Origin: Lytechinus pictus
Taxonomy: Eukaryota
Assembly: GCF_037042905.1 (NCBI RefSeq)
Contig: NC_087245.1
Coordinates: 21,950,001 to 22,010,000 of the forward strand
Reading direction: 5' to 3'
Length of the DNA: 60,000 bases
A model generated the notes under the pieces. That model ran no database searches. It saw only the letters and a program-made list of their open reading frames with translations, and was not told where the DNA came from. The stretch's first letter is position 1. Each line of letters begins with the position of its first letter. A program made the position numbers and the translations under genes. Below are positions 1 through 45,412 of the stretch, piece after piece.

Positions 1-1
1 G

Positions 2-1088
2 CCAAGAAAAGATTACATCAAATGTCTAATAGAAAGTATTGAAAGCGTAATAAAAAGGATGAGATGGAGAGCGCATTTTTTCCTCAGTGCAAACGACAGC
101 ACAAGCCAAAGTGAAACCGAAGCAAACGACAAAAGAGAGAAATTTGGGTTCAAATCAAAACGCACGCCCCCTCAGATAGATGAAATGACAAACTTTGAAA
201 ATGATTTATTAGGAATTGTAGATGAGTTGGAATTTAGGCGGGTAAATGACCAATTCCAAAGGAAACTCCGGGAAGATGTTAAGCTTATTAATACTTCAGA
301 AAAAGTATTCGTTCATGCCGACAAAACCCGGAACATATACATGATGGCCCCCAGGAAATACGAAAAGCTATTGAATGAGAACATTACAAGCAAATACAAG
401 TCTGCCAACGAAGAAATAATTGAAGAAATCGACCGTGAATCAGAAATGATTGCAAGAAAATTAGACATCGGTGATAGAATAAACAACACACCGGAAAAAG
501 CAGCGTTCATCACTTTAAAAGACCATAAGGAAAATTTCAAAAACAACCTCCAGGCCAGGTTAATCAACCCTACGAAACCCGAATTAGGCCGGGTTAGCAA
601 GATAATGCTTGATCGCATTAACAAGCAAATAAAAGCAGAAACCAACCCAAACCAGTGGACCAACACAGCCGATGTAATACAATGGTTCAAAAAGCTACCA
701 GACAAGGAATCATTATCATTTATTGTATTTGACATAATCGACTTCTACCCCTCCATCACAATCGAGCTATTGTCAACCTGCCTAAGCTGGGCCCAGAAAT
801 TCACTGCCATCGAAGATGAAGAAATGGAAACGATCATGCACGCAAGGAGAACATTGCTCTTCGACAACAACAACAAAGCGTGGGAAAAAAGAGAAGGCCG
901 AAAGCAATTTGATGTTTCCATGGGTGCCTACGACGGAGCCGAGATTTGCGAGCTCGTAGGATTATATGCTCTGTCACAGTTAAACAAAAGAATCAACACC
1001 TATAGTGTAGGCCTATACCGCGACGACGGACTAGCGGTACTCCGACGAGCATCAGGGAGCAGGGCGGACAGGGCGCGAAAAGACCTCA
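2..1088 (+). CDS. PLE ORF, N-terminal/RT part (frame open from base 2)
   Basis: Frame of ORF 59..1099 has no stop back to base 2 (PRKDYIKCLIESIESVIKRMRWRAHFF); catalytic YRDD near 1015-1026. Confidence 0.88.
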
Positions 1089-2663: not shown

Positions 2664-2665
2664 CA

Positions 2666-3699
2666 TAAAGGTCTTCAATGATCTCGGCCTACGCATCACC
2701 ATCCAAACTAACCAAAAAATCGTAGATTACTTGGACGTCACCCTCAACCTAGACACAGGCGATTTTCAACCATATAGAAAACCTAATGACACGGTGACCT
2801 ACGTACATAGGGCATCTAACCATCCACCCCCTATCCTCAACCAAATACCTGCGGCCGTTGAGAAGCGCCTCTCGACACTGTCTTCTAACGAAGACCTATT
2901 CAAGAAAGCAGCGCCAGCATACGACGACGCCCTGAAAAGAAGCGGGTATGACAAAACCATCAAATACATCAGACCAGTAGAAGAAGGAAGAAAAAGAAGA
3001 AATAGAAGTAGAAAAGTCACCTGGTTTAACCCACCTTACAATTCTGAAGTGAAAACCAACGTAGGAGGGAGATTCATAAAGCTAATAATGAAACACTTCC
3101 CCAAGGGACATAAATTGAACCAAATATTCAATAAGAACACAATAAAGGTTAGCTACAGTTGCATGAAAAACATGGATACCATAATAAAAACCCACAACCA
3201 AAAAGTTGTTAAGCAATCAAATCCACGAGCGGAAAATAAGCCAAAATGTAACTGTCGGCAAAAAAACCAATGTCCATTACAAGGAAACTGTATGCAGACG
3301 GCTCTGGTATACAAGGCGACGATCCGACATGGCAACGAAGAGAAACACTACTTCGGGCTTGCAGGGGGGACATTCAAAGATAGATACAGAAACCACCTCA
3401 AATCATTTAAGCATGAAAGATACCGGAACGAAACTCAACTCTCAAAATACACATGGAATCTGAAGGAAAAGAACATCGAATCTACGCTAACATGGGAAAT
3501 CGAAAAAAAGTCAAACTTAAACCAAAGAAAAAGTGGCTTGTGCAATCTTTGCCTGGAGGAAAAAGTGTCCATAATAACAAACAGAAACTCACTAAACAAA
3601 AGGTCGGAACTTATTTCAAAGTGCAGACACCGAACGAGACCAAACCGGAAACCACCGAAGCGTCAAATTGACCCGCCGCACCACACAAATAGCCAATAA
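2666..3699 (+). CDS. PLE ORF, RT thumb + GIY-YIG endonuclease part
   Basis: Joins the upstream part in frame once the insertion and one CA copy are removed: ...RARKDL-IKVFNDLGLRIT...; stop TAA at 3697-3699. Confidence 0.88.
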
Positions 3700-3705
3700 C
3701 GTCAG

Positions 3706-3754
3706 TCTGCCTGAAGATCGCCTCAAGTCCGGGCGTGAAACCGCCGGTAGCAGA
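3706..3754 (+). ncRNA. Minimal type I hammerhead ribozyme
   Basis: Stem I TCTGC/GCAGA; core CTGAAGA; stem II CGCCT/GGGCG; GAAA; very short stem III ACCG-C-CGGT; cleavage triplet GTA (3747-3749). Confidence 0.85.
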
Positions 3755-3769
3755 AGTTTAACAGGTACG

Positions 3770-3801
<32 letters not shown>

Positions 3802-3810
3802 TATATATAC

Positions 3811-3890
<80 letters not shown>
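3770..3890. repeat. (TA)n microsatellite
   Basis: Direct reading. Confidence 0.97.
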
Positions 3891-3896
<6 letters not shown>

Positions 3897-4030
3897 CAAC
3901 AGCTTTGGCAACTGTTTTATTTAAATATTTTGTGAAAGGAATGGATGAAGATAACAATGGTAGGCGTAGCTTAAATTAAGGTTCCCCAAAGCTATCTGCC
4001 CTTTTGGAAAAATTGGCAATGCCGAAAAAA

Positions 4031-4076
4031 TGTCTCTGCCGGGAATCAAACCCAGGCCCCCAGCTTTGAAAGCCGG
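4031..4076 (-). tRNA. 3' portion of a second copy of the TCA-anticodon tRNA-like sequence
   Basis: Reverse complement CCGGC-TTTCAAA-GCTGG-GGGC-CTGGG-TTTGATT-CCCGG-CAGAGAC-A followed by a T run. Confidence 0.65.
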
Positions 4077-4437
4077 TTCCCGGCAGAGACATTTTTTCGG
4101 CATTGCCAATTTTTCCAAAAGGGCAGATACCTTTGGGGAACCTTGATTTAAGCTACGCCTACCATTGTTCTCTTCATCCATTCCTTTCACAAAATATTTG
4201 AATAAAAATGTTGCCAAAGCTGTTGTACAAGTATAATTTCACACATTTGTATACTTTCTCCTATCATGCCTATACGTGTACTGTATCAAAGCAGTAGCTT
4301 TGATCCAGCTGAGGCATGGCGGCTTGTCATTGTTCAAAACCCACCTACACCCGACAAAGGAAATGATAATTGGTATAGTGTCGAAAATCTGTCTATCTGA
4401 CGGTCAGTCGGATCGGGGTCGCCCTAGCCACTAACCC

Positions 4438-4509
4438 GTCTCTGTGGACTAGTGGTTAAGGCACCGGCGTTCAAAGCTGGGGGCTCGGGTTCGATTCCCG
4501 GCAGAGACA
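4438..4509 (+). tRNA. tRNA-like gene or pseudogene, anticodon TCA, short variable loop
   Basis: Acceptor GTCTCTG/CAGAGAC, D-arm GACT-AGTGGTTA-AGGC, anticodon arm CCGGC-GTTCAAA-GCTGG, T-arm TCGGG-TTCGATT-CCCGG, A73, then TTTTT. Confidence 0.7.
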
Positions 4510-4605
4510 TTTTTCGGCATTGCCAATTTTTCCATGAGGGCAGATAGCTGTGGGGAACCTTGATTTAAGCTACGCCTACCATTGTTTTCTTCATCCATTC
4601 CTTTC

Positions 4606-4653
<48 letters not shown>

Positions 4654-4765
4654 AATCTGATATAAAAATGAGATATGTATGGGGAATCACACACACACAC
4701 ATGATCAATGGATATCATAAAAAGTCCAATAGTGACGTGAACATGCATAAGATGTTCATTTTGTG

Positions 4766-5590
4766 ATATATCAAGAAACAGTTTCATGTCACAAATTGTG
4801 ATTCGTTCTAATATCAGAAAAAAGTGTTTATTTGGTCTGCCATCACAAACAACACAGCAAAACAGTCAAAAGATTTAAATCATTCATATCATGTGCCGTA
4901 CTCATATTGTTTCAATCGCATACTTACGATAATCTATTCAAAATTAGAATATTATCGAGACACTGACATTGCACGACAAATTGTCGCCCCGTGACAATTT
5001 GTGCTGCACGTGGCGGTCTCAATTGTTAAGCTTATTGTGCCAATCTGTCTCGGCAAAAAGAAACCTAGAACCACAAATTGTCGCCCACTACACAAATTGT
5101 CTTCAACCACCAGTCTGGTGTGTAGTGTATGTGCGTTGGATTATGTGTGTCGTTATTCGTGGTAAGGCTGTGTGCGCTGCGTTGTGTTAGAGGTGAGTGT
5201 TGTGTTAGGGTGTGTATGTGTATTATTATATCAAGAAACAGTTTCATGTCACAAATTGTGATTCGTTCTAATATCAGAAAAAAGTGTTTATTTGGTCTGC
5301 CATCACAAACAACACAGCAAAACAGTCAAAAGATTTAAATCATTCATATCATGTGCCGTACTCATATTGTTTCAATCGCATATTTACGATAATCTATTCA
5401 AAATTAGAATATTAGCGAGACACTGTTGCACCACAATTTGTCGCCCACTACACAAATTGTATTCACCCACCAGTCTGGTGTGTAGTGTGGGTGCGTTGGA
5501 TTATGTGTGTCGTTATTCGTTGTAAGGCTGTGTGCGCTGCGTTGTGTTAGAGGTGAGTGTTGTGTTAGGGTGTGTATGTGTATTATTATT
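4766..5590. repeat. Local tandem duplication (about 460 and 360 bp)
   Basis: atatcaagaaacagtttcatgtcacaaattgtg... starts at ~4766 and again at ~5228, nearly identical. Confidence 0.9.
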
Positions 5591-14378: not shown

Positions 14379-15583
14379 GGATTTTACATCAGCTTTTAAT
14401 TTTTGTTTCCAAACAGCTCGCTCGTTACACACTCTCGCGAAAAATAAAGCCGAAATATATATCTTACCGATGATCAGAGATCACTTCAAAAAGGCTTTGC
14501 TCTACTTTGCTCCTCCGCCTTTCTTTTTGCGTGATACAACACATAAATCATCTAGCCAGATCAAATTTGTTGCCCCATTATGCCACTGTAGATTGTTTTA
14601 AGGTAGTGCCCTTTTCAAAAGAAAAGGTGCCCTTTTTCCCTATGCCCCCCTCACTTTCAATTTCACTCCGCCGCCCCTGTATACATCACACCTACATTCA
14701 CATGCGCGTACACATCCTCATCCTCACATACACACACGTACACACATTATGTATCTGTATAAATACGAAATAAGTACATGTATATTATATTCACTGTAGT
14801 TTCTGTTCATTGGCAATTTCTTCTTCCTTCTTCGATACAGAAACAATCTCACAATACTATATATCAATGAAACGTTGAATCCTTTCCCTTTTTTATTTTC
14901 TACCAATGAATTTACAATTTGTCTTTCTTAATTATTTTATTATTATGGCATGGGGTTTACCATTGCCCTTCGTCTATATACATGCGTACAATTAACTCTC
15001 GTATGATTACTGAAGTCCTAAAGTATATACAACGGCTGGAACTAAATTCCACATGAGCAGGAAAAAGATATCACCAATCCTAACAATATATCCCTGTTTT
15101 CATAGTTACCCGAATTCAGATTTTAAAAACTCCATGGAAATACATACACAGTGGCTTAGAAAGTACGCCTTAATAAAAAAAACATAAATTTAATTTTGGA
15201 GTGGGGTAGAATTGTTCAGTGAGGATAAAGTCGATTGAAAAATATTTTGAAGGTTATATAGGCACTTCCATTGACGGGTGGATACCATGCGTGACCATGG
15301 GGTTTAGCAAAGCACCCTAAACAAGTATTTTCCATGTTCTAAAAATGCCCCCCTTAACAAGTATTGGCGTGTGAAACCCTACCCTTAACAAATATTGGAA
15401 ACAAAACGGTACCCTTCACATGCTTGACAAGTATGGTGTGGGACAGCTGAGTCCCCTAAACCAACTGAAAAAGAGGCTACGAATTGCCGCATGATTGTGA
15501 TGTGTATGACATGTCATAGATCCACAATGTTTTATTCATTTTTCCCCCAGACTGCAACGATTTCAAACCTTTTCTTTTCAGTC

Positions 15584-15994
15584 ATGGATGATGACTTAAA
15601 TACATCTTCATCCCCAGTCAGTGATGAACTGGAGGGTGGCTACGTTAATATTGGAGCTCGAAGATGGCTTGCAGCATGGCTCGGGACCATTGCCGTCGTC
15701 GGCTTCTTCGGTAATGTCCTCGTGGTTACCTGCGTCATCCTATATCCGAAGCTGCGTACGATCACCAACGTGTACCTCACTAGCCTGGCTGTCAGTGATA
15801 TTCTGGTATGTTTGACCATTCCATGGATCATAGTCGGGCTGGTATCTACCAGGGGTTGGCCGTTTCCAGATGAAACCTGTATCATTGTGGCTATACTTCG
15901 GTTCACCTGCAGTGGCAGTAGTGTGTGGCACTTGGTTGCTATCGGTTTCAACCGCATGTTTCTCATCACCACTTCGACGGCAACGTATAAAAAG
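15584..15994 (+). CDS. Rhodopsin-class (class A) GPCR, coding exon 1 (TM1-TM3)
   Basis: GN in TM1, SLAVSD in TM2, WPF..C, AIGFNRM; donor AAG|GTAGAC; 411 nt, phase 0. Confidence 0.92.
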
Positions 15995-16529
15995 GTAGAC
16001 CCCTTTATCAAAATGCTATCATGTCTTTGAAATAAAAGAGCTTTACTGTCCAATTTGCATTCCTATGTTATAGTTACTTAAAGTTACGATAATAATTTGT
16101 TAATGAAATAGTGAAGATAAAAGAATGATGTAGGCCTACATCAAATTGGACAAAAATCCAACTAAATCGATGATGATTTTTATCTAATAACCCCATACCA
16201 TGTTCATCCATATGTCCCTTTCTGTTCTTTAAAACGACAGAATACTTATGTACATAATTTCTGGAACCAATTACTAAAATACATGCAGTGTATGAACGCA
16301 AACGATTATTGTGTTTCTTATCAAGGATGAAGATGAGTTGTGTAACTTTCTTCGAAACATGTTCTTTCAATAAAACATTCCATTCTTCAGATCATGTTAT
16401 AGTGTTACTAAGAGGACCATACATAATGCAAATTAAGTCGCCTAGCAATCTTCTGGAATCAGCTTTTTGGATAACCCCGGGATAACCTTGATATTATTTT
16501 CACTAATGGTTAGGAAGTAACCGAAACGG

Positions 16530-16785
16530 TATCAGAACAACTACCCCCTGGACAATCACCCCCCGGACAACTACCCCCCGGACAATTACCCCCCGAGGAC
16601 AATTACCCCCCGGACAATTAACCCCTGAGGACAACTACCCCCCGAGGACAATTACCCCCGGACAATTACCCCCCGGACAACTACCCCCGGACAATTACCC
16701 CCCGGACAACTATCCCCCGGACAATTACCCCCCGGACAATTACCCCCCGGACAACAACCCCCGGACAATTACCCCCTAGACAAAG
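16530..16785. repeat. Minisatellite (ccccggacaatta)n, ~16-19-bp unit
   Basis: Direct reading. Confidence 0.92.
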
Positions 16786-16900
16786 GGAGTGCACAGAGTC
16801 ATACGTCGGCCGTACGTTTGACGTAAGAAGTACTCAAGGCATTCTCGAGTATCTTGGAATCAAACGTACGCCGTAAGAAAGCTGTAAAATTGAGCTCCAT

Positions 16901-17418
16901 CCCGGGGGGGGGGCACTCGAACAAAAAAGTGGTAGGGGTGTGCCGCGGGCGAGATAAAAAAAAACGGGGGCCTTGGAGCGGGCTTATTGTAAAAAGGAGG
17001 GTCCTCGGAACGGGCTTTGGAACTATAAATGTTTGTGAAAACGGGGGTCCTTGGAACGGATCGCCAGCGTGTGCCTATTATGCATATGGAACGGGCATGC
17101 GTGCATGATGCAGCTAGCCCCCCGGCAGCCCGGCCGCCGGGTGCGATCGCGATGGTCGGACAGCGCTCTGCGGCCGCTTTTAACCAATGCGACCGGAACG
17201 GCGTAACGAAAAATATGCGAAGCGTTGGAGCGGATTTCTTTCTTCTTTTTTCTCGATAAGAAGAAAATGCTATGCTTTGGAGCGGCTTTCTTTGTTCTTT
17301 TTCTCAATAAGACAAAAATGCTATATGCCTTGAAACGGAAATTTGAGTGTAAAAATGGGGGTCCCCTCCGCGGCACATACCCACTATGCATTATATACTG
17401 AGTGCCCCCCCCCCCGGG
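16901..17418. mobile_element. MITE with cccgggG(n)cactc TIRs, copy 1 (GPCR intron)
   Basis: TIRs cccggggggggggcactc / gagtgcccccccccccggg; flanking duplication ctccat; homologous to 41925-42466. Confidence 0.88.
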
Positions 17419-17598
17419 CTCCATCCATAGGCGGATCCAGGGGGGCCGAGGGGCCCGGCCCCCCCCCCCCCCCCTGCAAATGAAACTGCAAGAAAACGTT
17501 TCTTCCAATCAAAAAAGACCAGTCGAAAAATAACTAACGATGATGAAGTTTTATTTCAAATCCCAGTTTAGCAGTTTGTATCTGTTTCCATTTTGCAG

Positions 17599-18141
17599 AT
17601 ATACAGCCGTGTTAACGCTGCCATCATTCTTTTTGTCACGTGGCTAATTCCTTTCTCCGTCATTATTGTGCCTTATGCCATCGGTGCCACGCAACTCGGC
17701 TATGATGACGGTCCCAAGCTTTGCAGTGATCTTGAAGATCGGCCGGACGGAACTGAAAACCTTACCCATACCTACCTTGCCGGGACTTTTCTGACTTGTA
17801 TACCACTGTCCATTGTAATATGCGTGTATCTGCGAATTTTCGTACACGTCAAACAGCATGTGAGGAAGCAGAAAGCATGGTCCTCTGGTGAACAACAGAA
17901 GAACACTAGAACTACTGGAACGACCGCAACCGCACAAGACACAGTATCACCCGAGCAGCAATCAAAGCAGAATACCGCGGGAAATGGCACAAGTACGACC
18001 GTGCAAGACCCGGAATCGAGCGGTAAGCAGCAGAACATCGCGGTGGCGTCTGTTAGCGCGACCGTAGCGAGCGCCGTGACAGAATCGACCGGCACTGGGG
18101 CCCAAGTCCAGTACAACAATCCGACGGAGCGCACTGTTCAG
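17599..18141 (+). CDS. Class A GPCR, coding exon 2 (TM4-TM5, long Thr/Gln-rich ICL3)
   Basis: Acceptor TTTTGCAG, donor CAG|GTACTG; W in TM4, ECL2 Cys, P..I...Y.RIF; 543 nt, phase 0. Confidence 0.9.
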
Positions 18142-18387
18142 GTACTGTTTTACTTGTATGTTCAAGAATTGATAAACAAAGCTGCAAAGTGTTGTGTTTC
18201 CGGGTGTGTTTCTCCTTATTGATACGAGTATCAACCATCTTTTTTTTTCTAACGAACAGACTTCATGAGATTGCAAAATAAAGGCTTTCATCAATTGAAC
18301 ATGCATATCTTGTTACTGATAAATAACTTTATTTTGCTTCTATATTTGTATTTTTAACTTTCAAACTTGATATTTCTTCTTCGGCAG

Positions 18388-18723
18388 AATCCCACCGCTG
18401 CCAACCGCAGAGTCCCAGTCAAGAAAGGCCAGGATCTTGAGACCCGCATCACGAAGAACACTTTCTATGTGACTCTAGGGTTCTTTCTATGTATCTTTCC
18501 ATACGGTTTTTATATTCTCGGCGGAGAATGGTTCAGAGTCAAGGGTACGCCTTTGGCACAGGCTTTCCTCCTGTTCAACATCTGCATGAACCCAGTGATT
18601 TACGGTACCAAGCATCCACACTTCAGGGTTGCCATAAGGAACATCTTCTCGAGACGATTGTCAGGTGCACTTGTCACGAGTAACACCGTCGATCCTGCTA
18701 CTGATAACCATGGGAGTACTTGA
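18388..18723 (+). CDS. Class A GPCR, coding exon 3 (TM6-TM7, C-tail); protein 429 aa, melatonin-receptor/moody/GPR84-like orphan
   Basis: Acceptor TTCTTCGGCAG; FFLCIFPY, NPVIY, HPHFR helix 8; TGA at 18721-18723. Confidence 0.9.
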   Translation, partial: NPTAANRRVPVKKGQDLETRITKNTFYVTLGFFLCIFPYGFYILGGEWFRVKGTPLAQAFLLFNICMNPVIYGTKHPHFRVAIRNIFSRRLSGALVTSNTVDPATDNHGST

Positions 18724-28479: not shown

Positions 28480-30216
28480 GGGCGGTATTCTGAGGTCATT
28501 TTATCTTTAAAATATTTTATTTTATCTCTTAAAATGAAATTGGAATTCTGAGATGACATTTTATCTCTCAGATTAAATTTACAATTTTATCTTGCGTATA
28601 AATTTTTTCTTGCGTATCTATGATGATACGCAACAGAGCAGTGGCTGCGTAGACATACCCATCGCGTATCTGGCCATTGCAACGCGGGTGATGTGCTTGC
28701 GCCCAAGTTACTTTGAAGAAAAAATAAAATAAACTTAAAAGAGGGTAGGGGCTATTTTATCTCCGCGACGTTGATTTCGTCAATATTTTTAAGTGAATTA
28801 ACTCCAAATGTTGGCATGAAAATTAAGAAAAATGATATATTCATTGAGAACAACACCTTAAAGTTATTCCTGTACAATCAGGAAGCATTTCATAAGACTT
28901 TTCTTGACTAATATTGTCTTTGAAATGATGCTTGAAAAGATGCGATATAGACTTCGAAAAAAAAGATGAGAGTATTGCCATTTTTGTTAAAAAGAAATCT
29001 CTGTAAAGACGCGCAAGCGTATAGTGCAAGCGTATTGAAGTCAATAATACCGTGTTTACACTTATACCGTGTTTACACTTAATCGGCATTTGAATCGGCT
29101 CGCGGTTCTGAACCGCGAGCCGATTCAGCATCGGCTTTTTCATAGCGTGTAAACGCGAGTAACTTGAATCGGCTCGCGGTTCAGAACCGGCAATTTGCAC
29201 CACCAAAGTACTAGGTTCTGAACCGCGAGCCGATGCAGAATCGGCTTTTTTACTACGTGTAAACAGAAAGCCGATTCTGCACCGGCAATTTGTGCGCATT
29301 TCAATTACTTTACCATTGTGACGTAATTGTAAGCGCACTGATCCAGCGTTGTCTTTATTATGACGTATATTGTAGGTATGCGTATCATTTCAGGTTTTTG
29401 CATCGGCTCGCGGTTCTGAACCGCGAGCTGTAACAACGTGTAAACGCAATCCAAATGCCGATTCTGAATCGGCATTTGGTTCAGAACCAAATGCCGATTA
29501 AGTGTAAACACGGTATTAATCGGCATTTGAATCGGCTCGCGGTTCTGAACCGCGAGCCGATTCAGCATCGGCTTTTTCATAGCGTGTAAACGCGAGCAAC
29601 TTGAATCGGCTCGCGGTTCAGAACCGGCAATTTGCACCACCAAAGTAGTAGGTTCTGAACCGCGAGCCGATGCAGAATCGGCTTTTTTACTACGTGTAAA
29701 CAGAAAGCCGATTCTGCACCGGCAATTTGTGCGCATTTCAATTACTTTACCATTGTGACGTAATTGTAAGCGCACTGATCCAGCGTCGTCTTTATTATGA
29801 CGTATATTGTAGGTATGCGTATCATTTCAGGTTTTTGCATCGGCTCGCGGTTCTGAACCGCGAGCTGTAACAACGTGTAAACGCAATCCAAATGCCAATT
29901 CTGCATCGGCATTTGGTTCAGAACCAATTGCCGATTAAGTGTAAACACGGTATAAATTGACGCAATCTCACCTCTTCGCCACACCTCCTAGCGGAATGGA
30001 TTTCCATTGGTTGAGTGATATGAGAGAGCTATAAAAGCGTGTTTCTTATTGGATATTGATTACAAAATAGGTGTGTCTTACAGAGATAAAATGAAGATAA
30101 AATTGTTCTCAGAATACCAATTCGGAGAGATTTTAAGGGTATTTTATCTCACTGATTTTAACGGAGATAATATATTTTATTTTATCTGAGATAAAATGGA
30201 TCTCAGAATACCACCC
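28480..30216. mobile_element. Harbinger-like MITE (TSD CAG) inserted in a LINE/SINE-type 3' stem-loop tail
   Basis: gggcggtattctgag / ctcagaataccaccc; CAG on both sides; flanks rejoin as acagggctctttt...aaaaggactaccctgt followed by aataaa repeats. Confidence 0.82.
29048..29952. mobile_element. Harbinger-like MITE (TSD TAA) containing a second copy of itself (29065-29515, TSD TTA)
   Basis: TIR taccgtgtttacacttaatcggc / gccgattaagtgtaaacacggta; both TSDs exact. Confidence 0.88.
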
Positions 30217-30635: not shown

Positions 30636-30638
<3 letters not shown>

Positions 30639-30804
30639 CCGGCAGAGACATTTTTTCGGCATCACCAATTTTTCCAAAGGGTAGATATAGCTCTGGGGAA
30701 CCTTGATTTAAGCTACGCCTACCATTGTTCTCTTCATCAATTTCTTTACAATATTTAAATAAAAGAGTTGCCAAAGCTGTTGTACATGTATAACTTTACA
30801 CATT

Positions 30805-30875
<71 letters not shown>

Positions 30876-30920
30876 ATATAAATATGAGAAATTATACACG
30901 TACAGCTTTGGAAACTCTTA
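30636..30920 (+). mobile_element. Second locus of the (TA)n-associated tRNA-containing repeat (truncated), with a short inverted piece
   Basis: ttcccggcagagacattttttcggc...ccaaagctgttgtaca matches 4077-4250; embedded in (TA)n; inverted tacagctttgg near 30900. Confidence 0.85.
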
Positions 30921-31402
30921 TATATATATTTATATATATACTGTATATATAAAGCAATTTCAATGAAGAAAAATGACAATGTACCTATCAGTAATATTAT
31001 ACAGGAATAGGACTCCTTGTACATTATTGTGATGCAGAAAATATAAATTAATAAATAAAAAAGCGTGATGTGATGTTTCTTTCTTTCAAATAGCAGATTA
31101 CCTCAGTTGACAGGTCAGAGCTTAAGAAAATTCCCAAAAGGTACTTGAAAAATACCTAAATGGACACAAAATCCGCAAATCTTATAAATCACAATAACTT
31201 CAGAAAAGCTAATTTTTATTGCCCAATACTAGTTCATGTTTGTATGTACATCCTTGTCTGTTCAAATCCTCAATGCTGCACCCAGTAGATAAGCTCCCTG
31301 ATGGCAGACAAGCGAATGAAATTCACTTGGGGAAACCCTACACTCACCCATTTCATTTGGGATACACCATAGTTCAGTCCTCCTCTTTTCACCTTCTCTT
31401 AA

Positions 31403-36954: not shown

Positions 36955-37560
36955 TATCATCACATCACATCAGGTACGGAAATGAAGGACTTCTCCTGTA
37001 GGTTTTCCGGTCTTTACTTCTGGTAATTGACGATTATCTAGATAGTTTAAACTTGTGAGACTTTACGTGCGTTGAGAAATGGAGGTTTTGAATCTTTCCC
37101 CCCACCAAAATTTATCCAACAGATGTTTAAACATTTCCACTGATTTAGCTTCCACTACTTCTGTAGGCAGTTTGTTCCAGTCAGAAATTACTCTTTGACT
37201 GAAAAAAATACTCCTAGGTTCCAGCCGAGATCGTCCTGTGAAAAGCTTGAACTTGTGACCTCTAGTTGCTGAATGGATCGCTGGTGTGAAGAATGTGTCA
37301 CTCGATATCCCAAACTTTCCATTTAACAGTTTGTAAACAGTAATCATTTCTCCTCTTCGTATTCTATAAAACAGCGAGTGAAGGTCTAGTCTCTCTAGGC
37401 GTTGCTCATACGTTAAGCTCTGGAGACCAGGAATCATGCGAGTAGCTCTCCTTTGCACCTTCTCTACTTTTTCTGCATCCATTTTGAATCTCACATGCCA
37501 TAAAATGTGCCCATATTCCAGATGAGGTCGAACCAGAGATACAAACAATAGGAAATGGGT
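36955..37560 (-). mobile_element. 5'-truncated CR1-type LINE (ORF2 C-terminus + 3' UTR)
   Basis: LVRPHLEY, EKVQRRATRMIPGL, TRGHKFKL, FFSQRVISDWNKLP; tail (tgatg)n at 36958-36972. Confidence 0.9.
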
Positions 37561-38071
37561 TTGTGTTGTTACTCTCACAATGCATTTCTTTTTAAGAGCG
37601 ATATTCTCAAGAGACTTAGAACTTGAATGTATAATAAAACATGGCAGGAGATGGGGTTTTCATGACAATGCCACGATACGAGGGAATGTGGCGACAGGGA
37701 GAAAATCTTTGCATTTGTAGCACTTTATGAACTTCCAAATAACATCTGCAAAATCGTTAAATTTCTGAATGAGATACTCAACATGCATATAGGCTGCAAA
37801 AGAATACGACCTATTGATCAATGCCCTAGCTGCATAACACAAAATTCTACACTAGAGTATTGCAGAGTATAGAGTCAAATCATTTTCCATGCTGCTTCTA
37901 TCATGGGGAGGGGGGCAGGGGGCGATCGCCATGGAAATATTGGGGATGTGGCAGGACTTGCCCTGCCCAATTGACAAAATGAAAAATGTATGAATCCATT
38001 ACAAAAATGTGTTTGAAAAACATCTGAAGGTGCTATAAAACCATCAAACTTGACATAACATTAGTATGTTA

Positions 38072-45159: not shown

Positions 45160-45412
45160 AATCCATATTTTATTGTTCGAAATAGACATGAAATGAAATA
45201 CTCTCAAAATTTGCTTTGCTCAATTGATCGTGGGCACGGCAGCCGCTGTGCAGTGCCAGATCGATGAGGCTCTATCCCTTTAATCGTTGAACGGCAAACA
45301 GGGTAGCAGCAACTCCAATATTTTAACGTATTTTGGTCTGATGCAGCCGGGGTTTGAACCTCGACCTCCCGGTTGTGAGACGGACGCTCTACCAACTGAG
45401 CCAACACATCGG
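45160..45412 (-). mobile_element. tRNA-derived SINE with Meta-domain-like core
   Basis: Minus strand tggctcagttggtagagcg...ggttcaaacccc, then accaaaatacgttaaaatattggagttgctgctaccctg. Confidence 0.75.

Follow-up and report, generated by a model that had tools for sequence, protein, structure and literature searches.

We analysed a window of 60,000 nt of Lytechinus pictus DNA (assembly GCF_037042905.1, NC_087245.1, positions 21,950,001-22,010,000, forward strand; all coordinates below are those of the window). It contains two insertions of a short non-coding repeat with an internal tRNA-derived module, the first of which (locus 1) lies next to a Penelope-like element (PLE). Read from left to right, locus 1 comprises the 3' end of the PLE (3768), a (TA)n tract separating the PLE from the repeat (3770-3890, no strand), an inverted 5'-truncated copy of the repeat unit (3893-4077, minus strand; left edge 3887/3893), a single full unit of 418 bp that starts at T59 in the T-loop of its tRNA (4077-4494, plus strand), a second, partial unit in the manner of a pseudo-long terminal repeat (pLTR-like direct repeat; 4495-4609, plus strand) and (TA)19 as the right flank (4610-4647, no strand). 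The same order had been read from the letters in an earlier note on this DNA, and the analysis of locus 1 confirms it. The period is 418 (4078 aligns with 4496), and the partial copy amounts to 0.27 unit with ~93% identity across 119-124 nt. The inverted piece covers tRNA position 26/27 to unit position ~4229-4235, has 91-93% identity to 4460-4621, and is joined head to head with the forward copy with an overlap of 1 base.

At the second locus (locus 2), a forward piece (30636-30808, plus strand, 88% identity) is bounded by (TA)14 on one side and a long TA tract on the other; it begins at T59 and ends at unit position ~4251, and its first base is the same as that of the forward copy at locus 1. 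A short and more diverged inverted piece (30880-30929, minus strand, 76-77% identity) stands tail to tail with it, with TA tract in between, and may be a separate older insertion. The earlier note had described locus 2 as lying in (TA)n, as beginning at the same point and as having a small inverted piece of its own; location and starting base hold, and the inverted piece is real, but in view of its orientation and divergence it perhaps does not belong to the same event. A search for at least six consecutive TA repeats gave five matches in the 60 kb, corresponding to four tracts, and every tract abuts an end of the element.

The repeat family and its insertion marks

Reads and contigs were mapped to one unit (4165-4582), and four of the 24 listed sequencing runs were searched. 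The family is abundant: its contigs numbered 5,949 and 3,544 in two DNA runs of one organism (from different studies) and 542 in a second organism (note that these are not copy numbers), and 1,993 RNA reads were obtained from about a quarter of one raw RNA run. The family unit is a non-coding repeat of roughly 410 bases (418 bp in the window copy); no viral or metagenome contig searched matched the family pattern. The head-to-tail joint 4581->4165 is present in 12, 4 and 5 contigs of the three DNA runs as well as in 401 RNA reads. Since the joint exists in DNA, tandem units are a trait of the family in DNA, and the joint in RNA is no proof of a circle.

Among the loose ends listed (24 of 764), six are 3' ends running into TA/CA repeats behind 4187, 4197, 4245 and 4253, and such ends occur in all four runs. 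Most of the others fall at gaps in the alignment of the window copy to the family, and at one, before 4542 (62 RNA reads), a 5' end adjoins a GA repeat. Four of the 15 joints listed (of 81) connect opposite strands. RNA depth increases across the tRNA (438 at 4434, 483 at 4448, 608 at 4485, 682 at 4505) and remains high 3' of it (705 at 4550, 734 at 4575), which places 5' ends within the tRNA. Variants at 4415, 4416, 4422, 4434 and 4505 are found in about a third to a half of the RNA reads and are rare in DNA contigs; they represent either a subfamily that is expressed or a small number of loci with high expression.

According to the available text of PMC8557442, PLE insertions are recognizable by partial tandems, an adjacent inverted 5'-truncated copy, a tail of 30-40 bp at one end and a microsatellite bias. 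Locus 1 carries all four of these marks. Partial tandems are found at locus 1 and in the family joints, and the inverted 5'-truncated copy at the 5' end (3893-4077) has its counterpart in the opposite-strand joints of the family. The preference for (TA)n flanks proposed in the earlier note is borne out within the window, where all four long TA tracts abut the element, and by the TA/CA loose ends of the family. A tail is present at one locus: the left end of locus 1 maps to 4229-4235 and the right end to 4192-4197, which results in a tail of ~37 nt (32-43, depending on the cut point in the TA overlap) at the left end alone, the right end having none. In PLEs, such a tail arises from two adjacent internal start sites of reverse transcription in an AC-rich stem-loop (PMC11167929, available part). 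Here, the three 3' ends in the window map to ~4192, ~4229-4235 and ~4251, and together with the loose ends of the family they cluster in an AT/AC-rich region (4187-4253, plus strand), which contains the candidate start sites of the reverse transcriptase (RT). The local fold of this region is not significant (z 0.08 for 4165-4260 and 1.62 for locus 2). No target-site duplication (TSD) is discernible at the window loci or the family ends listed; the ends are variable and lie in TA runs.

Four letters (4183, 4521, 4522, 4541) are common to all three pieces of locus 1 and absent from 94-97% of the family depth in one sequencing run (X1), whereas locus 2 has the family-majority letters at these positions. 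This indicates that the two loci are independent events, each derived from one template lineage.

The tRNA module, the antisense leader and ribozyme searches

The module at 4438-4509 (plus strand) is a cloverleaf with A and B boxes and a non-canonical anticodon loop (UCA), recognized both by Rfam (53.8 bits vs. a gathering score of 29) and by ARAGORN (anticodon tca). A search with the pattern of its D and T arms gave 134 metagenome loci, all of them real tRNA genes, and no match in viral contigs. As 145 of the 148 tRNAs matching the arm pattern in the metagenome loci are tRNA-Glu, the arms identify tRNA-Glu as the apparent source of the module; the unit body had no BLAST match at E 0.05 to the same 134 loci. 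Four of the loci (L036, L050, L025 and L121) are tandem tRNA-Glu arrays with units of 146-170 bp, and the L121 units each carry short TA tracts. The stem pairs of the module are intact (21/21 in the family majority, 20 in the window copy). Compared to 42 distinct tRNA genes, the family-majority tRNA is identical at 43-54 of 71 positions, with 4-8 stem pairs altered on both sides relative to the 38 of these genes that keep at least 20 pairs, and its anticodon loop (G32, UCA) equals none of their loops. Judged against these genes, the retention of the stem pairs together with the non-canonical loop implies that the fold has been kept and decoding has not. The module does not have the features of a UGA-reading or selenocysteine (Sec) tRNA, being a 72-nt gene with a 4-nt variable loop and G at position 32; note that tRNA finders label such copies as tRNA-Sec or suppressor genes.

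Directly 3' of the tRNA follows a T5 run (4510-4514, plus strand; T6 in other copies, the family reading T5-T6), and a second T5 run lies 17 bases further (4527-4531, plus strand), i.e., the runs are at +73 and +90 relative to the tRNA start. A T-run within 25 nt behind the gene was found for 132 of the 148 real tRNA genes as well. Human RNA polymerase III (Pol III) is terminated by 5-7 T (PMC8531034, available part), and a T5-6 run right behind the tRNA therefore argues against SINE-type (short interspersed element) transcripts of unit length, unless read-through is high. As a control, an ordinary-looking SINE in the window, with a tRNA-Val-like head (45339-45410, minus strand), has its first T4 at base 201.

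In Rfam numbering, A58 corresponds to 4494 and T59 to 4495. Both forward copies in the window (n=2) begin at T59, one base past A58, at 4077 in locus 1 and at 30636 in locus 2; under uniform truncation, two independent starts would fall within one base with a chance of ~3 in 418. On the HIV primer tRNA, 1-methyladenosine at this position (m1A58) brings reverse transcription to an end (PMC4033218, available part), and the T59 starts could by analogy be set by an m1A58 block to the RT, a cause that we consider possible, if somewhat doubtful. If it applies, the template RNA would contain the module in the folded and modified state of a tRNA. Against such a stop, A58 was passed in the inverted copy and in the full copy. 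Two contigs of another run (X10) starting at 4495 and 4496 were dropped as support for T59, the breaks being explained by variation 30 bases downstream.

Upstream of the tRNA lies an antisense leader (4312-4437, plus strand), an imperfect reverse complement of the tRNA (minus the anticodon arm) and its trailer (4446-4580). The two form 81 Watson-Crick pairs in 110 aligned columns, with a score of 104 for borders that were picked after the fold had been seen; this score was attained by one of 1000 shuffles and, among 113 real tRNA loci, by L095 alone. In L095 and in the runner-up, L074, the alignment covers the tRNA proper, and both look like adjacent inverted tRNA genes. The leader is likely to have originated, by analogy to locus 1, through a head-to-head inversion of a tRNA-headed sequence, the product of which later turned into the unit. 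The predicted fold of the unit is a rod with its tip at the tRNA 5' end (4437/4438); its circular-fold z is -5.6 for the plus strand and -2.6 for the minus strand, and -3.2 for the unit without the tRNA.

The earlier note had also pointed to a hairpin as a possible cis signal. Its 8-bp inner stem (4285-4304, plus strand) exists and survives the listed variants, as 4288 changes to G.U and 4294 lies in the loop. The outer arm (4265-4271), in contrast, is an insertion that most of the family lacks (6 bases are missing at 4266 in 211 of 352 RNA reads), and the hairpin alone is not significant (z -1.4 for 4280-4325, 21 of 200 shuffles being equally good).

That no hammerhead could be found in the element, as already stated in the earlier note, agrees with the descriptor and Rfam searches of the plus strand. 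Our hammerhead descriptor, which is positive on the hammerhead of the neighbouring PLE, found none on the plus strand of the unit at 0-2 core mismatches; in relaxed form it had one and two matches on the minus strand. A descriptor for ribozymes like that of hepatitis delta virus (HDV) gave no matches on either strand (3 of 20 shuffles match). Rfam detected no ribozyme on the unit, with one chance match at E 7.6 on 4260-4445; since it overlooked the minimal hammerhead of the PLE too, this blank is weak. Core patterns for twister and pistol ribozymes matched a single isolated twister-like string in the unit and nothing of the pistol type. A degenerate hammerhead at GAAA 4360 failed the stem test, and miRNA-type Rfam matches at 3988-4134 were rejected as below the gathering score and a product of the inverted repeat. 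The element thus has no detectable self-cutting ribozyme, and the tRNA may do that job instead.

The neighbouring PLE and the probable mode of copying

The PLE next to locus 1 is represented by two pieces, both free of stop codons. The 5' piece of the RT open reading frame (ORF) (1-1088, plus strand) extends beyond the window start and has RWR, DKT and YRDD motifs. The 3' piece (2664-3699, plus strand) contains the rest of the RT, a CxCx5C linker and a C-terminal endonuclease region with CxxC and CxH. Pfam gave nothing above the cut-off for either piece. The ORF is split by a DNA-transposon-like non-coding insertion of 1.57 kb (1089-2663, no strand) with terminal inverted repeats that start with CCCAGG, a 2-bp CA duplication and long, internally repetitive inverted ends, which we take to be EnSpm-like. 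A minimal type I hammerhead with three stems (3706-3754, plus strand; core 3711, GAAA 3737, cleavage triplet 3748-3749) lies directly behind the stop codon and about 15 bases ahead of the TA tract; it is absent from the Rfam matches. As described in the available text of PMC8557442, PLEs of the Hydra clade possess a C-terminal endonuclease, RWK-like and DKT motifs, CxCx5C, CxxC and CxH motifs and a hammerhead, and nearly all families are found in (TA)n. In its motifs, read by eye against this text, and in its descriptor-predicted hammerhead, the neighbour matches a Hydra-type PLE. An assignment to the Naiad clade was dropped because of the C-terminal endonuclease and the hammerhead. Both clades target (TA)n (PMC8557442, available text), and a common (TA)n preference is sufficient to explain the adjacency of PLE and element. 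The earlier note had considered the element a tRNA-bearing non-autonomous partner of the neighbouring PLE family. The element is indeed non-coding and ribozyme-free and has PLE-type marks; for the partnership itself, no common sequence was found and the PLE is split by a transposon, so that this family is a plausible partner by its target only.

With the architecture of locus 1, TA/CA flanks, tandem units in DNA, a tail, an intact cloverleaf, an antisense leader and no detectable ribozyme, the element is probably a non-coding, non-autonomous retroelement that a (TA)n-targeting PLE copies in trans through its RT/GIY-YIG protein, with the tRNA replacing the ribozyme. The template would be a plus-strand RNA longer than one unit (a multimer or a circle), folded as a rod. 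The PLE endonuclease would nick (TA)n, and reverse transcription would begin internally at one of several AT/AC-rich sites in 4187-4253; two start sites ~37 nt apart would produce the tail. The RT would copy about 1.3 units and tend to halt in the tRNA module, at T59 in the present case, where the m1A58 block would lie, and the inverted piece would result from priming from the other nicked strand. According to PMC11167929 (available part), hammerhead cleavage is not required in vitro.

As to the role of the tRNA, it may well be a substrate for host tRNA-maturation enzymes, which would cut or mark monomers instead of a hammerhead. With less confidence, it can be regarded as a promoter from which Pol III would read through the T-run, in analogy to proposals for Cassandra and Helenus, and it is unlikely to be a passenger. 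An extended scheme, which is tentative and rather improbable as a whole, would make the element a 'tRNA-retrozyme', i.e., a rod-shaped RNA replicon whose multimers would be cut and marked by host RNase P/Z, m1A58 methyltransferase and perhaps tRNA ligase. In this scheme, the antisense leader would bring the monomer ends close to each other at the rod tip (4437/4438) and hide the tRNA, a Hydra- or Naiad-type PLE protein would copy the RNA into (TA)n, and the m1A58 stop would set the 5' end.

Several observations weigh against copying of the element by a PLE protein with the tRNA in place of the ribozyme. At locus 2, A58-T59 overlaps the TA tract, so that the start there can be read as microhomology, and this is one of four AT/TA sites in the tRNA. 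There is no T59 hot spot among the loose ends or joints listed, although poor mapping at 4515-4536 makes this test of the T59 end blunt. The rise in RNA depth across the tRNA is gradual and without a step, no site was found in the 1,993 reads of the one raw run where many RNA molecules start or stop, and the reads are equally distributed on both strands; with neither start or stop peaks nor a strand preference, the reads give no sign of an independent transcript, a processing site or a circle. The wobble pairs in the leader have no strand bias (10 G.U vs. 8 A.C), and the listed variants 4319, 4416, 4418 and 4422 disrupt predicted rod pairs, although 4319 and 4575 could be a compensating pair. 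Furthermore, the rod is predicted to be ~18-21 kcal/mol more stable than the cloverleaf form, and the tRNA fold would thus need to be transient. The unit and the part of the neighbouring PLE inside the window align with local scores of 21 and 20, as compared with shuffle means of 21.6 and 22.3. Finally, the genes used for comparison with the tRNA came from metagenomes, and the true parent tRNA, in the host's own set, may be closer.

The most familiar alternative is an ordinary tRNA-Glu SINE, with its head at 4438, its body reaching 4609-4670 and (TA)n for a tail, that formed a dimer with a twin-priming inversion and was moved by a long interspersed element (LINE). The A and B boxes are intact, thousands of contigs carry the family, and LINE machinery also yields 5' truncation and inversion. 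However, the tRNA is internal, nine of the contig records listed run from the leader into the tRNA, and there is neither a loose end at 4438 among those listed nor a depth step at this position. A T5-6 run stands directly behind the presumed head, (TA)n is present on both sides, the 3' ends spread over 65 nt, and units occur head to tail in DNA. This alternative, already weakened, is quite improbable: with respect to a 5' tRNA head and a simple tail, the tRNA proved internal, the ends variable and the (TA)n preference present, and the view of the earlier note that this is not an ordinary SINE stands. We give a similarly low probability to a satellite or tandem unit derived from a tRNA gene, which would have spread without an RNA step, either through recombination or because circular DNA reinserted into fragile (TA)n; the inversion would then be a fold-back repair product. 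Tandem tRNA-Glu arrays do exist (the four metagenome loci with 146-170-bp units), the T-run is gene-like, and no independent transcript is seen. On the other hand, the ends are polar (5' in the tRNA, 3' in 4187-4253), the tail is one-sided and the truncated copy is joined head to head, all as in PLE insertions, and the anticodon loop equals none of those of the 42 distinct genes.

Still less probable is a non-autonomous rolling-circle DNA element of the Helitron/Helentron type with a captured tRNA. Tandem units, internal inverted repeats, a short hairpin, AT-rich targets and the lack of a TSD are all known from such elements, but a head-to-head truncated inversion is not known as one of their marks, and the repeat has no fixed termini, the three 3' ends in the window being different and those of the family being spread over 4187-4253. 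Equally remote is a true retrozyme with a kind of ribozyme that our searches do not detect. Its size, tandem form and stable fold would match animal retrozymes as far as the available descriptions go, and Rfam overlooked even the minimal hammerhead of the PLE; against it stand the hammerhead descriptor without a match on the plus strand, the HDV-like descriptor without any match and the Rfam search of 4260-4445 with a chance match only.

Relation to known elements and other features of the window

Copying by a PLE protein, the reading that we prefer, invites comparison with animal non-LTR (LTR, long terminal repeat) retrozymes, which, according to the available texts (PMC7229834; bioRxiv 10.64898/2026.07.22.740005), resemble the element in the short non-coding tandem unit, the stable fold and the proposed mobilization by PLEs. 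These retrozymes carry a type I hammerhead, instead of which the element has a tRNA cloverleaf and its antisense copy; its tandem non-coding units are, as theirs, a few hundred bases long (418-bp period), and none has a hammerhead. In addition, unlike the retrozymes as described there, it has no similarity to a PLE terminal repeat (compared with the neighbouring PLE). With insertions of Hydra and Naiad PLEs and with Chlamys elements such as MRC1, as far as they are presented in the available text of PMC8557442, the element shares the partial tandem, the inverted 5'-truncated copy, the tail, the (TA)n target and the lack of a TSD. In contrast to PLEs, it has no ORF. Non-autonomous Chlamys elements generally have a 3' end similar to that of their autonomous partner, whereas the element does not resemble its neighbour, and the PLE accounts in the same text mention no tRNA module.

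The TRIMp3 elements Cassandra, Helenus and Ajax, to which the element offers a parallel, are LTR elements with a primer-binding site (PBS), a polypurine tract (PPT) and 4-5-bp TSDs (PMC10886601, available part, where the word 'Penelope' does not occur). The element differs from them in its PLE-type, variable ends in TA runs, its (TA)n target and the lack of a TSD (PBS and PPT were not searched for separately). tRNA-derived SINEs, as portrayed in the same source, are alike in the A and B boxes, a length of hundreds of bases and their abundance; the element departs from them in the internal tRNA with a terminator-length T-run behind it, the tandem units and the lack of a fixed 5' head or 3' tail. 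Thus, the boxes of a SINE are present, while its 5' tRNA head and its freedom from internal Pol III terminators are not.

No tRNA-bearing PLE partner was found in the literature, as judged mostly by titles and the beginnings of abstracts (supplements, Repbase and Dfam were outside this search), and a prior deposit of the family as an unclassified repeat or SINE is possible. The available part of 10.1101/596502 contains both a non-autonomous Penelope and tRNA, with no link between them. LINEs have hitch-hikers derived from small-RNA genes (SINEs), and so do LTR elements (Cassandra, Helenus, Ajax); the element would be the PLE counterpart of these hitch-hikers. It would also be a natural test of the role of the hammerhead in PLE-type elements, the tRNA sitting in its place. 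Mapping of RT start and stop in PLEs is named as an open task in the available text of PMC8557442, and a short unit with clustered 3' ends is a handy template for such mapping in a (TA)n-targeting PLE.

The window contains further repeats and ORFs. To the right of the element, two copies of a ~430-bp segment (4763-5230 and 5232-5590, within 4720-5590) were recognized by eye, ending in (TAT)n, and two 437-bp tandem units with 98% identity and internal palindromic repeats lie at 29079-29957. An ORF at 37063-37659 (minus strand), which had no Pfam match, is presumably the 3' end of a CR1/L2-like RT ORF. Three exon-like ORF pieces at 15428-18723 read, in our assumption, like exons of a rhodopsin-type G-protein-coupled receptor.
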